This document shows, one piece after another, positions 3,940 through 8,467 of a stretch of 16,064 bases of DNA. Within the stretch, counting starts at the first letter, position 1; each line of letters begins with the position of its first letter. Source of the stretch: Promethearchaeota archaeon (GTDB lineage Archaea > Asgardarchaeota > Lokiarchaeia > Sigyniarchaeales > SOKP01); the NCBI GenBank assembly GCA_048939015.1, contig JBHLPW010000087.1, forward strand, positions 1 through 16,064, in the 5' to 3' direction. Under the pieces are notes generated by a model. It saw only the letters and a program-made list of their open reading frames with translations. It did not search any database and was not told where the DNA came from. A program made the translations under genes and the position numbers.

Positions 3940-4653
3940 ATGAAAATGAAATTTGAACGATATGAATCTAGATTTAAAGCAGGAGAATTATTAGCAGAAT
4001 TTATTGAAACCAAAATAAAAGAGAATATAAAACAACAAATTCATGCTTCTCAATTTTTCTGTTTTGCAATTCCTAATGGGGGAGTACCTGTTACAGAAGG
4101 ATTTTGTTCCAAATACAAATTGAATTATGATTTGTTGATCGTTCGGAAGATTAAAATTCCTTTTAATACAGAAGCAGGTTTTGGGGCTGTAACGACTGAT
4201 GGGACTGTATTAATCAATAATTCGTTATTAAACAGACTCAATTTATCAGAGAATGAAGTAAAAAATTCAATCAATATAACCAAAAATGAGATTTATGAAA
4301 GAATTAAGTTTTATAACAAAGAATCAAATTTAACGCATTTTTATAACCATTATATTAAAAAAAAGAATATTTTTTTACTCGATGATGGACTGGCTTCAGG
4401 ATTTACTATATTAGCAGCGATAAAAATGATTAAAAAATATAATCCTTCAAATATATTTATTGCTGTTCCTACGGCACCTTTAAGAACAATAAAGAAAATT
4501 GAACTTGAAGTAGATGAGGTTTTTTGTCCTAATATTAGGCAAGTATTGTGGTTTGCCGTTGCTGATGCATATAAGAACTGGTATGATGTTCCAGAATCAG
4601 AAGTATTAAAGATAATTAGTAATTCTCCCTATTACATAACTAATTTAAAATAA
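3940..4653 (+). CDS. Type I phosphoribosyltransferase family protein
   Basis: PRPP-binding loop IFLLDDGLASGFT, plus AIPNGGVPV, IVRKIKIPFNTEAGFGAV and AVADAYKNW, typical of the stand-alone PRTase family. Confidence 0.9.
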   Translation: MKMKFERYESRFKAGELLAEFIETKIKENIKQQIHASQFFCFAIPNGGVPVTEGFCSKYKLNYDLLIVRKIKIPFNTEAGFGAVTTDGTVLINNSLLNRLNLSENEVKNSINITKNEIYERIKFYNKESNLTHFYNHYIKKKNIFLLDDGLASGFTILAAIKMIKKYNPSNIFIAVPTAPLRTIKKIELEVDEVFCPNIRQVLWFAVADAYKNWYDVPESEVLKIISNSPYYITNLK

Positions 4654-4722: not shown

Positions 4723-4989
4723 TTAAGCACTTTCCAATTTGAACAAGATAGAAGAGTGAGGGATATAGAACTCGTCCTTTTTCTTAATGACTACCGTATG
4801 GAAATATTCAGCAAGTCCGAGGAAACCACGGATAACAGATTCATCCTCCTCGAATCTGAAAATTACAGAAGCGATAGCAGCCCCTGTGCTGAAATTCACT
4901 TTATCATAAACTCTTTCGTCAATTAGAGGAATTTTAAGCTCATTTACAATTTCATATACCCGTTTAATGAACAGTTCTCGCTTAGGCAT
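4723..4989 (-). CDS. Hypothetical protein (88 aa, soluble, alpha/beta pattern)
   Basis: Clean ATG ORF, more GC-rich than its flanks, with globular amino-acid composition. Divergent from the 5255 gene. No family recognised. Confidence 0.7.
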   Translation of the reverse strand: MPKRELFIKRVYEIVNELKIPLIDERVYDKVNFSTGAAIASVIFRFEEDESVIRGFLGLAEYFHTVVIKKKDEFYIPHSSILFKLESA

Positions 4990-5254: not shown

Positions 5255-5965
5255 GTGGTTTCAAAAGAACAGAAAAAAATAGAACGTGTTATTAATTTTA
5301 TGAAAAAAGGTTTAACCTCCCTTGCAGATGATCTAGAGGAGACTGTAAAAGGAATAAATGATTTTATCAAATCATTAGCTAAAGCTCAGAAAGATTTAAA
5401 AGAAGTATCTGTTGTTGAAGAAGTTCATACTGTAAGTACTTCCTCTAAAAAAATAGTAACACCAACAAGTGAGGGTGCAAAAACTGCTGCTGCATCAACA
5501 TTATTTTCTTTGTTAAGTAGTGGCGGGAGTGCTCCAACTACTCCAGGTTCGGTACCTGCAGTTGCTACCGCAGCTCCAACACCTCCCTCGGGAGGAGGAC
5601 CTCCTAAAGCTCCTGCTGGTGGTGGACCCCCTAAAGCTCCTCCTGGTGGAGGACCCCCTAAGCGTCCAGGTTTACCCCCTGCTCCAAAATTACCTCCTGC
5701 AGGTGGTGCACCTCCTATAGCTCCTCCTGGCGGAGGCCCTCCCAAAGCTCCTGGTGGAGGCCCCCCTAAAGCTCCTGCTTTTGCTAAAAGACCTGCAACA
5801 GCCCCTGGCACTCCTCCTGCAGCACCTGGTGGAACACCTCCACCCGCGCCTTCCATGCCTGCTGCTCCTGCTGTAGCATCCCAAGCCGGAGGTGGTTTGG
5901 GTTCACTAAGAGATGAAATGCTTGATGAATTGAATCGCTTGAAGAAAATTATGAGAGGAGAATAA
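5255..5965 (+). CDS. Coiled-coil / proline-rich / C-terminal WH2-like protein (candidate actin regulator)
   Basis: GTG start with AGAGGA at 5237-5242. Heptad repeat at aa 9-51, Gly/Pro/Ala-rich region at about aa 90-205, and C-terminal SLRDEMLDELNRLKKIMRGE. Synonymous variation among the repeats supports this frame. The CDS is secure; the function is inferred. Confidence 0.75.
   Translation: MVSKEQKKIERVINFMKKGLTSLADDLEETVKGINDFIKSLAKAQKDLKEVSVVEEVHTVSTSSKKIVTPTSEGAKTAAASTLFSLLSSGGSAPTTPGSVPAVATAAPTPPSGGGPPKAPAGGGPPKAPPGGGPPKRPGLPPAPKLPPAGGAPPIAPPGGGPPKAPGGGPPKAPAFAKRPATAPGTPPAAPGGTPPPAPSMPAAPAVASQAGGGLGSLRDEMLDELNRLKKIMRGE
5591..5776 (+). repeat. Coding repeat GGGPPK(A/R)P x5 plus degenerate copies
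   Basis: ggaggaggacctcctaaagctcct, ggtggtggaccccctaaagctcct, ggtggaggaccccctaagcgtcca, ggcggaggccctcccaaagctcct and ggtggaggcccccctaaagctcct differ mainly at third codon positions. Confidence 0.9.
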
Positions 5966-5974
5966 AACCTTCGC

Positions 5975-5993
5975 TTTTTGTTTTTTCTTTTTT
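5975..5993 (+). terminator. Putative archaeal oligo-T terminator
   Basis: tttttgttttttctttttt begins about 10 nt after the 5965 stop. The AT-rich background lowers specificity. Confidence 0.45.
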
Positions 5994-6062
5994 AAAATAA
6001 CCACTATTTCTTTATATTGAATTGAAAAGAATTTTGAATTACTAATTAAAAAGCTATCATAA

Positions 6063-6887: not shown

Positions 6888-8009
6888 ATGGGAAACATAA
6901 CAGTTGTTCTTGATATAGGTCAGTTCAGCACAAAAATTGGATTTGCGGGTGAAGATTCACCATCACAAGTCTTCTTAACAATGGTAGGAACACCCAAATA
7001 TCAAAGTGTTGATGTTAGTTATGAATCTAAACATTCACGGGAAGATGAAATATATGTAGGAGATGAAATTCAATCAATTGGATTATATAAAATTTCCCAT
7101 CCTATTGAAAAAGGAATTGTTGTAGATTGGAATCATTTTAAGAACATTATTGATTATATTTTCTACAATTTGAGAGTGGATCCAACTCTTGTCAATGTAT
7201 TATTAGCGGTCCATCCATTATTTCCTTATAAAGATTTAGAGAAAATATTTCAGTTATTTTTAGAAAAATATCAATGCATGGCTTTTTATCCTGTATTAGA
7301 TTCAATGCTGACGTTATATTCAGGAGGTTTTCAAACAGGATTAATCGTGGAGATAGGAGATAGTAATACCCGAATAGTACCAATTTATGAGGGATATAAA
7401 CTAGAACATGCAGTACGGATTCTAGATATTGGAGGAAGAGTTTTAACTCATTATATGGAACAGATTTTGGAATCCATTGGTTGGTCCGTTGACTCTTCTA
7501 TTAGACGGGAACTTGTAAGAGTCTTAAAAGAAAAAGCATGTTTTGTTTCCTTAGATTATAAAGAAGACATAAAACGGAGTGAACAATATGAAAAAGAATA
7601 TTCTCTCCCAGACGGTTCTACGATCTCACTTAATAAAGAAAGATTTATTGTTCCAGAAATATTATTCAAGCCGACTTCAGAATTAGAAGAAGTTTCATTA
7701 CCAGCAGCAATAATGGATGTAATTGAAGAATGTGATTTAGATATCCGTCCAGACTTATTGAACAATATATTTCTCTCAGGCGGATCCTCCATGTTTCCTA
7801 ATATGAAATCCCGTATGTATCAAGAATTAGAATTGGAATTAGCAAGGCGTAAGAAGAAAAATTTAGGTATTCGAATTATAGCTCCAATGGAAAGAACTTT
7901 TTCTGTGTGGATTGGCGGTTCAATCTTAGCGATGATCCCTGAATTTTCGCAAAATTGGATTTCTCGTGCTAAATATTTTAATGAAGGAATACCACCTAAT
8001 CTTCTTTAA
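6888..8009 (+). CDS. Actin family protein (divergent Asgard actin-related protein)
   Basis: Colinear with eukaryotic actin: KIGFAGEDSP, YVGDE, PIEKGIVVDW, FYNLRVDP, VPIYEGY, LDIGGRVLT, KEKACFVSLDY, YSLPDG, ERFIVPEILFKP, CDLDIRPDL, LSGGSSMFP, APMERTFSVWIGGSILA. Confidence 0.95.
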   Translation: MGNITVVLDIGQFSTKIGFAGEDSPSQVFLTMVGTPKYQSVDVSYESKHSREDEIYVGDEIQSIGLYKISHPIEKGIVVDWNHFKNIIDYIFYNLRVDPTLVNVLLAVHPLFPYKDLEKIFQLFLEKYQCMAFYPVLDSMLTLYSGGFQTGLIVEIGDSNTRIVPIYEGYKLEHAVRILDIGGRVLTHYMEQILESIGWSVDSSIRRELVRVLKEKACFVSLDYKEDIKRSEQYEKEYSLPDGSTISLNKERFIVPEILFKPTSELEEVSLPAAIMDVIEECDLDIRPDLLNNIFLSGGSSMFPNMKSRMYQELELELARRKKKNLGIRIIAPMERTFSVWIGGSILAMIPEFSQNWISRAKYFNEGIPPNLL

Positions 8010-8125: not shown

Positions 8126-8467
8126 ATGGAAAAATTTGATGATAATAGGTATTATAAACCAAGCTATTCACATTTATTTAATAAAATAAAGGACATTAAA
8201 ACCCCTATAAAAAATGAAATCTTAATTGCACTCCTCGATGGTCATTGGCATTCAGAATTAGAATTAATAAGAGTCACTAAAAAACAGCATGGATTTGTAG
8301 GTCCTGTAACACTGGGAACTATGATACATGGTTTAAATCATACTATTAAAAATAATTATCTTCAGAAAAAAATCGTAAATGGTAAGTTATTTTATAAAAT
8401 ATCAGACAATTATGTGGGACTTACACGAGCAGCGTATAGATTTGACTCAAATGATTTTCTGAAATAA
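8126..8467 (+). CDS. Hypothetical protein, probable winged helix-turn-helix
   Basis: KNEILIALLDGHWHSELELIR (helices 1-2), GPVTLGTMIHGL (helix 3) and YLQKKIVNGKLFYKIS (beta wing) fit the wHTH pattern by eye. Confidence 0.55.
   Translation: MEKFDDNRYYKPSYSHLFNKIKDIKTPIKNEILIALLDGHWHSELELIRVTKKQHGFVGPVTLGTMIHGLNHTIKNNYLQKKIVNGKLFYKISDNYVGLTRAAYRFDSNDFLK

Follow-up and report, generated by a model that had tools for sequence, protein, structure and literature searches.

P0001, an uncharacterised Asgard protein of 236 amino acids (aa), ends in a short tail that is the best-conserved part of the protein, and structure prediction supports one continuous amphipathic helix for it. On balance we favour the reading that this tail is a tethered, portable docking helix, i.e. 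a short linear interaction module of an Asgard-specific scaffold, which would bind a conserved partner in trans. The gene lies in a stretch of 16,064 nucleotides (the window, analysed at its whole length) from a Promethearchaeota archaeon (GenBank assembly GCA_048939015.1, contig JBHLPW010000087.1), whose genome comprises 4.86 Mb in 125 contigs with a guanine–cytosine (GC) content of 27%. A preliminary description, made from the window alone, had read the tail as a WH2-like actin-binding motif or, alternatively, as one continuous helix acting in oligomerisation like the C-terminal helix of Ena/VASP proteins. Judged from profile searches and the predicted structure, the tail is not a canonical WH2 motif. 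Two Asgard-restricted, uncharacterised protein families share it, and they occur in roughly 40–65% of the sampled genomes.

Conservation of the C-terminal tail

The tail peptide SLRDEMLDELNRLKKIMRGE is encoded at positions 5903–5962 and forms the C-terminus of the P0001 open reading frame (ORF); codon 217 starts at 5903 and the TAA stop (5963–5965) directly follows the tail codons. Re-reading of the sequence confirmed the motif exactly where it had been placed, at 5903 and immediately after an AGGGLG linker and a Pro-rich tract. The tail residues run S-L-R-D-E-M-L-D-E-L, then N-R, then L-K-K-I-M-R-G-E, so that the spacer of only two residues described previously (N-R, between L226 and L229) was found as well. 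The tetrapeptide LKKI is by itself unremarkable, being found 206 times among the 7311 ORFs, whose products are rich in Lys and Ile; a relaxed regular expression for the whole motif matched once in the genome, in the P0001 ORF.

Orthologues were identified in 38 of 41 close relatives and, over the phylum, in 129 of the 301 genomes sampled. Twenty orthologues from the same genus agree in all of the last 20 residues, whereas their Pro-rich tracts differ both in sequence and in length. When 31 orthologues from eight genera were compared, the tail was near-invariant, with almost no replacements, although two orthologues differ synonymously at, on average, 8.4 of the 22 codons; such conservation goes far beyond chance, and selection therefore acts on the peptide. 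The preliminary description had made its proposal depend on conservation of the motif in orthologues, and the tail turned out to be the most conserved element: among 13 deep-lineage representatives, mean pairwise identity reaches 0.58 in the tail, as against 0.27 in the N-terminal helix, 0.23 in a second short motif and 0.12 in the linker. In a 26-sequence alignment of the soluble family covering ten GTDB families, L218, M222, E225 and K230 are invariant, as are the Pro columns P144 and P147, and R228 is conserved at 90% or above. Tails from deep lineages are still recognisable (ISGLRDEMLKELKRLKSIMKGEK, IAGLRNEMMAEIKRIKEIFES, ITDLRNAMMTELSRLKKLFAAEE and KSSLQSEMLAEMERLKALMGGD; VSSLKSEMLKELKRLKKLMTGMT in an Odinarchaeum-type genome). 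Database searching returned 228 homologues; among the 120 listed, none has a Pfam domain, all those named are 'hypothetical protein', and all stem from metagenome-assembled genomes of Promethearchaeota, Lokiarchaeota, Odinarchaeota, Hermodarchaeota or Thorarchaeota.

The elements of P0001 are as follows (AF2, AlphaFold2; pLDDT, predicted local distance difference test).

5255–5965, plus strand: P0001, ORF of 236 aa with a GTG start, member of an uncharacterised Asgard-restricted family
5264–5413, plus strand: predicted long N-terminal alpha-helix, aa 4–53 (AF2, pLDDT >90)
5477–5527, plus strand: second short conserved motif, AKTAAASTLFSLLSSGG, aa 75–91 (alignment; consensus [DEA]-x-[LV]-[FWI]-x-x-[LF])
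5537–5893, plus strand: Pro/Gly/Ala-rich tether, aa 95–213, predicted to be disordered, with five GGGPPK units and two embedded conserved motifs
5672–5698, plus strand: LPPAPKLPP, conserved motif inside the tether (alignment)
5777–5794, plus strand: AFAKRP, conserved motif inside the tether (alignment)
5897–5953, plus strand: predicted tail helix, aa 215–233 (AF2, pLDDT about 94; conservation; hhalign)

When modelled by AF2 with the orthologue alignment, only residues 4–53 and 215–233 form confident helices and the region between them is disordered, apart from a weak helix at 74–88 in the region of the second motif. The N-terminal helix, which gave weak Pfam matches to generic coiled-coil families only, is probably a coiled-coil or oligomerisation stalk. 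The 119 residues of the tether include 41 Pro, 24 Gly and 25 Ala, with a longest Pro run of three, and tether length and repeat number differ between close orthologues (proteins of 220–305 aa). Both embedded motifs are kept across families: LPPAPK[LM]PP, a PxxP-plus-Lys pattern that is MIM2-like or SH3-ligand-like, and [AS]F[AM][KQ]RP. A look-alike search of the ESM Atlas with the whole protein gave no usable match. The window is AT-rich (about 24–30% GC) with a single GC-rich island at 5500–5900, which is due to the Pro/Gly codons of the tether. An antisense ORF of 143 Gly/Pro/Ala-rich codons (5425–5856, minus strand) mirrors these plus-strand codons and is most likely not a gene.

WH2 and VASP comparisons and the geometry of the helix

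A WH2 motif consists of a short amphipathic helix of two to three turns, a flexible linker and an extended LKK[TV] element (conserved as L-[KR]-[KRH]-[TVA]); it occupies the subdomain 1/3 cleft of G-actin, and the linker between helix and LKK lets LKKT lie extended along actin. The tail of P0001 resembles such motifs (PF02205; WASP/WAVE, thymosin-beta4, Spire and the GAB of VASP) in having a Phi-Phi-x-x-Phi amphipathic helix (Phi, hydrophobic residue) downstream of a Pro-rich region, an Arg before the helix and L-K-K after it. However, scoring against the WH2 and VASP-tetramerisation profile hidden Markov models (HMMs), the check proposed with the preliminary description, gave no match to either. 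The Pfam WH2 model did not match the whole protein at E ≤ 1, nor the last 37 residues, 16 orthologous tails or 19 sister-family proteins (see below) at E ≤ 10; VASP_tetra, DAD and similar models were likewise without a match at E ≤ 10 in the same sequence sets, PF08776 (VASP tetramerisation) included for the protein, its last 37 residues and the 16 tails, with the limitation that HMMER filters may discard very weak matches.

The tail also departs from WH2 in its pattern of conservation. The position of L229 is Leu or Ile and K230 is conserved, but the residue after them, the second Lys of the WH2 element, is free across orthologues (K, S, E, G, A or T, as in LKSI, IKEI, IKGM, LKAL and LKTL), and the two positions that follow are always bulky hydrophobic (IM, LF, LM, IF, MF or FM) and not T/V. 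The linker between helix and LKK is gone, the acidic/Trp tail is absent, and AF2 predicts a single uninterrupted helix of 19 residues (215–233). Its hydrophobic face (L215/L218/M222/L226/L229/M233) forms a single stripe with i, +3/4 spacing that runs right through LKKIM, alongside the conserved polar residues R219, E225, R228 and K230, and the hydrophobic moment of the tail is 1.52 as against 0.73 ± 0.37 for shuffled sequences. The helix does not pack onto the rest of the protein in the AF2 model (predicted template modelling score, pTM, 0.22). A profile search of the PDB with the tail as query returned helices of GCN4, M-protein and IL-4 (overall E 0.14–10), the best being GCN4 EVARLKKL and M-protein AELERLK (E 0.14–0.3), and no WH2–actin or MIM–MIT peptide chains.

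Thus, the WH2 reading of the tail is not upheld. Because the WH2 comparisons fail, the hydrophobic stripe is unbroken, AF2 predicts a helix throughout and the PDB matches are to coiled coils only, the alternative of one continuous helix is supported, in agreement with the periodicity of conservation. The analogy to VASP tetramerisation that had been attached to this alternative is not, since there is no VASP_tetra match and the predicted helix is 19 residues long; tetramerisation coiled coils of VASP have about 35–45 residues. In its general layout P0001 nevertheless parallels Ena/VASP proteins (EVH1, Pro-rich region, EVH2 with GAB/FAB, C-terminal tetramerisation coiled coil): both are largely disordered and combine an oligomerising helix (in P0001 a probable one), a Pro-rich tract (profilin-type in Ena/VASP) and short helical elements for binding. 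The order is inverted in P0001, where the stalk is N-terminal, there is no EVH1 or VASP_tetra match, Pro runs do not exceed three residues and no homology was detected.

Other proteins carrying the tail, and the gene neighbourhood

The same tail helix was found in a second family, present in 133 of 201 sampled Asgard genomes. Its representative in the window's own genome is a protein of 153 aa (P0002 type; L041:7306-7767:+, contig C105) with an N-terminal coiled coil, a tract containing PPPPPP and the C-terminus SLRGAIMGELKQLFAKRKGQSG, and the tail pattern of this sister family is [LIV]-R-x-x-[LIM]-x-x-E-L-K-x-[LA]-[FL]-x-[KR]-[RK]. When the two families were compared with hhalign, the tails alone aligned (LRDEMLDELNRLKKIMRG versus LRGAIMGELKQLFAKRKG; probability 93.8%, E = 1.8e-7). 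The families share the homologous tail helix (LRxx[IM]xxELKxLF...) and the order coiled coil, Pro-rich tract, tail; they differ in that the N-terminal regions are not detectably homologous and in that the sister family has a KRK cluster after the tail and true PPPPP(P) runs, is more widespread and is unlinked to the small neighbour of P0001 described below (s88). Sister-family proteins (about 150 aa) carry a conserved acidic-aromatic N-terminus, MAEEFxxF... or, in another taxonomic family, DDDFIxEEFEWAL; an acidic/aromatic motif, poly-Pro and a helix recall the parts of nucleation-promoting factors, in a different order.

In two further taxonomic families, variants of about 320–350 aa replace the P0001 family (L052:5034-6035:+ and L054:4998-5954:-). 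Their N-terminal transmembrane helix is followed by basic residues, and a cytoplasmic helical region leads by way of a Pro-rich tract to a P0001-type tail. Longer proteins with the tail were looked for and did not turn up, which is weak evidence. The tail helix thus occurs in three N-terminal contexts, and therefore a common external partner would be expected rather than packing on its own stalk.

The neighbourhood of P0001 in the window is given below; taxonomic families are numbered, f1 being the window's own and f7 the Odinarchaeum-type.

3940–4653: phosphoribosyltransferase
4723–4989, minus strand: s88, a protein of 88 aa, divergently adjacent to P0001 (adjacency, phyletic pattern, AF2)
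5966–5995, plus strand: T-rich tract CTTTTTGTTTTTTCTTTTTT, directly 3' of the P0001 stop codon
6063–6809, plus strand: PIG-L family deacetylase, between P0001 and the actin paralogue (PF02585, E = 5e-22)
6888–8009, plus strand: actin-family paralogue, 373 aa (PF00022, E = 4e-92)
8126–8467, plus strand: protein of 113 aa downstream of the actin paralogue, co-conserved within f1 (no Pfam match)

The strongest association found was with s88. Its gene adjoins the P0001-family gene in f1, f3, f6, f7, f16, f23 and f25, in divergent, convergent or tandem orientation, and lies about 3 kb away in f2. The counts for s88 are 62/68 in f1, 6/7 in f2, 4/4 in f7, 3/5 in f12, 16/19 in f16, 6/6 in f23 and 3/3 in f25; outside these families it was counted in 3/76 in f11 and otherwise not at all, a distribution by family almost identical to that of the soluble P0001 family. 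A conserved-neighbour analysis of 11 families yielded s88 alone as shared across deep lineages, the other neighbours being housekeeping genes. It is likely, then, that s88 is a physical partner of the family. Since tail-bearing proteins also occur where s88 is missing or rare (f11, f18 and f20), the family-specific N-terminal parts are a more likely binding site for s88 than the tail is. AF2 predicts for it a small alpha/beta fold (a helix plus beta-alpha-beta-beta-beta; pLDDT 89.5, pTM 0.80). Fold searches with s88 (Foldseek against the PDB, a wide VIA-align search and the Atlas) reached a Z of at most 4.4 and brought up neither an informative cluster nor a convincing relative. Some genomes of f1 have two to four s88 paralogues.

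On its other side, P0001 is followed by an actin-family gene. Three such genes are present in the genome, and because the best one (426 bits) lies on another contig (C12), the gene at 6888–8009 is a paralogue and not the main lokiactin. The order s88, P0001, (PIG-L), actin paralogue, 113-aa ORF is found in all eight sampled genera of f1; orthologous loci differ in whether they have the PIG-L gene, even within a genus, and its flanking genes remain together with or without it. In the remaining families sampled, a survey of about 5 kb around the family gene found neither actin nor ESCRT genes, and gelsolin appeared in one f16 genome only, at a distance of four genes. The T-rich tract after the stop codon may be an archaeal oligo-T terminator, with the P0001 ORF as its own transcription unit, a reading limited by the frequency of T runs in a genome of this composition; co-transcription of P0001 with the actin gene is therefore uncertain. 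The Pfam model for profilin had no match in the genome, in a type of search that a control showed to be uninformative.

For the sister family, no conserved neighbours were found between Loki-type and Odin-type genomes. Its gene lies 5–9 kb from the cluster of Vps4 and ESCRT-III genes in the three small-genome families f7, f19 and f25, with unrelated genes between, and about 480–770 kb from Vps4 in f12, f20, f23 and f11. An apparent gelsolin beside the sister-family gene of one genome (G078) proved to be a small ORF matching the Zn tail of a two-domain gelsolin. This free-standing Zn-ribbon ORF (L159:8541-8696, contig C43) matches the C-terminal part of that gelsolin and is just upstream of the sister-family gene; a compact cluster of ESCRT genes (a PH-like protein, two ESCRT-III proteins, Vps4 and Vps25) lies about 4 kb away.

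Candidate partners of the tail

In the docking reading, P0001 would be a mostly disordered scaffold made of an N-terminal, probably oligomerising helix, a Pro/Gly-rich tether of about 120 residues with further short motifs, and the tail helix. The tail would bind in trans to a groove on a conserved cytosolic partner through its hydrophobic face (L218, M222, L226, L229 and M233) framed by R219, E225, R228 and K230, and the stalk, or in some lineages the transmembrane anchor, would together with the tether present it multivalently or at a membrane. Here, unlike for the conservation, the predicted helix, the portability and the failure of the WH2 comparison, we infer: both docking in trans and the identity of the partner are proposals. 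An actin-family protein (lokiactin or the adjacent actin paralogue), bound in a non-WH2, single-helix mode, is narrowly the leading candidate on the basis of synteny at the family level and of architecture, and is best described as possible. The MIT domain of Vps4, bound in the style of MIM1, is less probable, self-association is the least probable of the three, and something else would account for the remainder. Several points weigh against the docking reading. By its sequence the tail resembles a generic coiled-coil segment, GCN4 and M-protein being the best PDB profile matches, so that self-association or packing on another helix of the assembly keeps some probability; oligomerisation of the stalk is suggested solely by one long predicted helix; and the ranking of partners draws on lineage-restricted synteny and weak motif resemblance.

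Eukaryotic actin assembly factors combine an oligomerising helix, a Pro-rich region and a C-terminal amphipathic helix with basic residues, an architecture that P0001 would parallel by analogy. This, together with the position of its gene one or two genes upstream of the actin paralogue in all eight genera of f1, with or without PIG-L, and with the sister family, in which the homologous tail and the KRK cluster come within about 15 residues after the PPPPP(P) runs, speaks for the tail being a compact WH2/DAD-like G-actin-binding element which, with the Pro-rich tract and the oligomerising stalk, would make a primitive actin assembly factor similar to Ena/VASP or the formin tail. The literature reports solely gelsolins and profilins as Asgard actin regulators, and an assembly factor of this type is therefore missing, which we counted in favour of this reading. 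It nevertheless seems unlikely to us: no WH2 match was obtained in the protein, its tail, the orthologous tails or the sister family, the linker is absent, the second Lys is variable, the fourth position holds I/L/M/F, with M/F next, rather than T/V, and AF2 predicts a continuous helix. In addition, actin adjacency is limited to f1 and absent in the other families sampled, a putative T-rich terminator follows the ORF, and Pro runs in P0001 do not exceed three while Loki profilins are reported, as quoted in PMC8410842, not to bind poly-Pro.

A comparison with MIT-interacting helices starts from the position of the tail, at the extreme C-terminus behind a flexible Pro-rich linker, which is that of MIM1 helices in CHMP1-3/Vps2, IST1 and Asgard ESCRT-IIIB. 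The MIM1 consensus in such a C-terminal helix is (D/E)xxLxxRLxxL(K/R), and eukaryotic MIM carriers outside ESCRT-III exist. M222, L226, L229 and K230 would supply its hydrophobic 0/+4/+7 and basic +8 positions, and the ESCRT-IIIB protein encoded beside Vps4 in the same genome, which ends ...IAELEKELNRLKSDQ, has ELNRLK in common with the P0001 tail. When the tail HMM was run against the C-termini of the 7311 ORFs, this protein was the top non-self match (rank 2, E = 0.33). Asgard ESCRT-IIIB tails share E-Phi-x-x-E-Phi-x-[KR]-L-[KR] (I-x-E-L-E-K-E-I-K-K-L-K-E in 18 other Asgard genomes), the tails of Asgard Vps2/24/46 have been described as MIM1-like (Lu et al., PMC7240154), and the proximity of the sister family to the Vps4/ESCRT cluster in three small-genome families points the same way. 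That the tail is a MIM1-type helix which recruits the Vps4 ATPase or is handled by it, as are the C-terminal helices of CHMP1-3/ESCRT-IIIB or IST1, is however a reading to which we give somewhat less credence than to the actin assembly factor. The reverse search with an HMM of ESCRT-IIIB tails ranked P0001 only 153rd of 7311, and hhalign of tail to tail in the expected register gave a probability of just 4.5% (E = 0.009). Relative to the eukaryotic consensus the charges at −3 (R219) and +3 (E225) are swapped, a difference to be read with the fact that Asgard ESCRT-IIIB tails likewise carry Glu at +3, and the P0001 helix exceeds MIM1 helices in length, two further hydrophobic residues following LKK. 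P0001 has no Snf7 core in Pfam searches, a difference that is compatible with MIT binding in view of the carriers outside ESCRT-III; the N-terminal helices of the family and of ESCRT-IIIB aligned with an hhalign probability of 5.9%, and the PDB profile search returned no MIM peptide chains. The P0001-family gene lies about 270–790 kb from Vps4 in all closed or large-contig genomes of f1, f2 and f23, and MIT domains also occur in large families without tail-bearing proteins; being near-universal (186 of 201 genomes), the MIT domain has a phyletic profile that does not discriminate. It appears that the MIM1 resemblance, as far as sequence comparison goes, is real but weak, as expected of any E/K-rich amphipathic helix. 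In the window's own genome Vps4 alone scored above the Pfam cut-off for the MIT domain (PF04212), and five sub-threshold MIT-like matches fell in large ORFs (465–2124 aa) and may be TPR-like repeats.

The continuous AF2 helix, its 3-4-4-3-4 hydrophobic spacing and its close likeness to the C-terminal GCN4 heptads (EVARLKKL[VM]), the best PDB profile matches, would also suit a self-association helix that cross-links stalks into higher-order assemblies or condensates. We regard this as the least probable of the specific alternatives, since 19 residues are short for a stable coiled coil, VASP_tetra does not match, no intramolecular packing is predicted, and the invariant polar residues E225 and K230, with R228, as well as the portability of the tail, membrane-anchored variants included, better fit a common external partner. 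The docking reading is the one that we retain.

WH2-like elements have been described in Asgard archaea as LVDV/LKDV/LRRV linkers inside two-domain gelsolins (PMC9433394; bioRxiv 10.1101/2025.11.30.690169). These LKxV motifs, from the same organisms, are the only WH2-like Asgard elements described before in the literature consulted; they are extended linkers between two gelsolin domains, whereas the P0001 tail stands free at the C-terminus, is predicted to be helical and belongs to a protein that lacks a gelsolin domain. On poly-Pro motifs of Asgard proteins there are general remarks only (PMC8410842), and literature searches for a nucleation-promoting or Pro-rich Asgard actin factor yielded nothing relevant. 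What the present analysis adds is two uncharacterised Asgard-restricted families with a strongly selected C-terminal helix on a Pro-rich tether, sometimes membrane-anchored. To our knowledge, no Asgard nucleator, elongation factor or membrane tether for actin has been described, and actin networks in these organisms are dynamic. It is conceivable, if improbable, that the tail helix is an archaeal actin-binding element of a single-helix mode and that both families and the anchored variants are the missing Asgard factors for actin assembly or membrane tethering. If so, they would stand as functional precursors, or else analogues, of Ena/VASP, formin tails or WASP-family proteins, coupled to the actin paralogue in Lokiarchaeaceae-type genomes. 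Whichever the partner, actin, Vps4 or a new one, the tail would provide a compact handle on cytoskeletal or membrane-remodelling organisation in Asgard cells, and if it is actin, the finding would have a direct bearing on how eukaryotic actin assembly factors arose.

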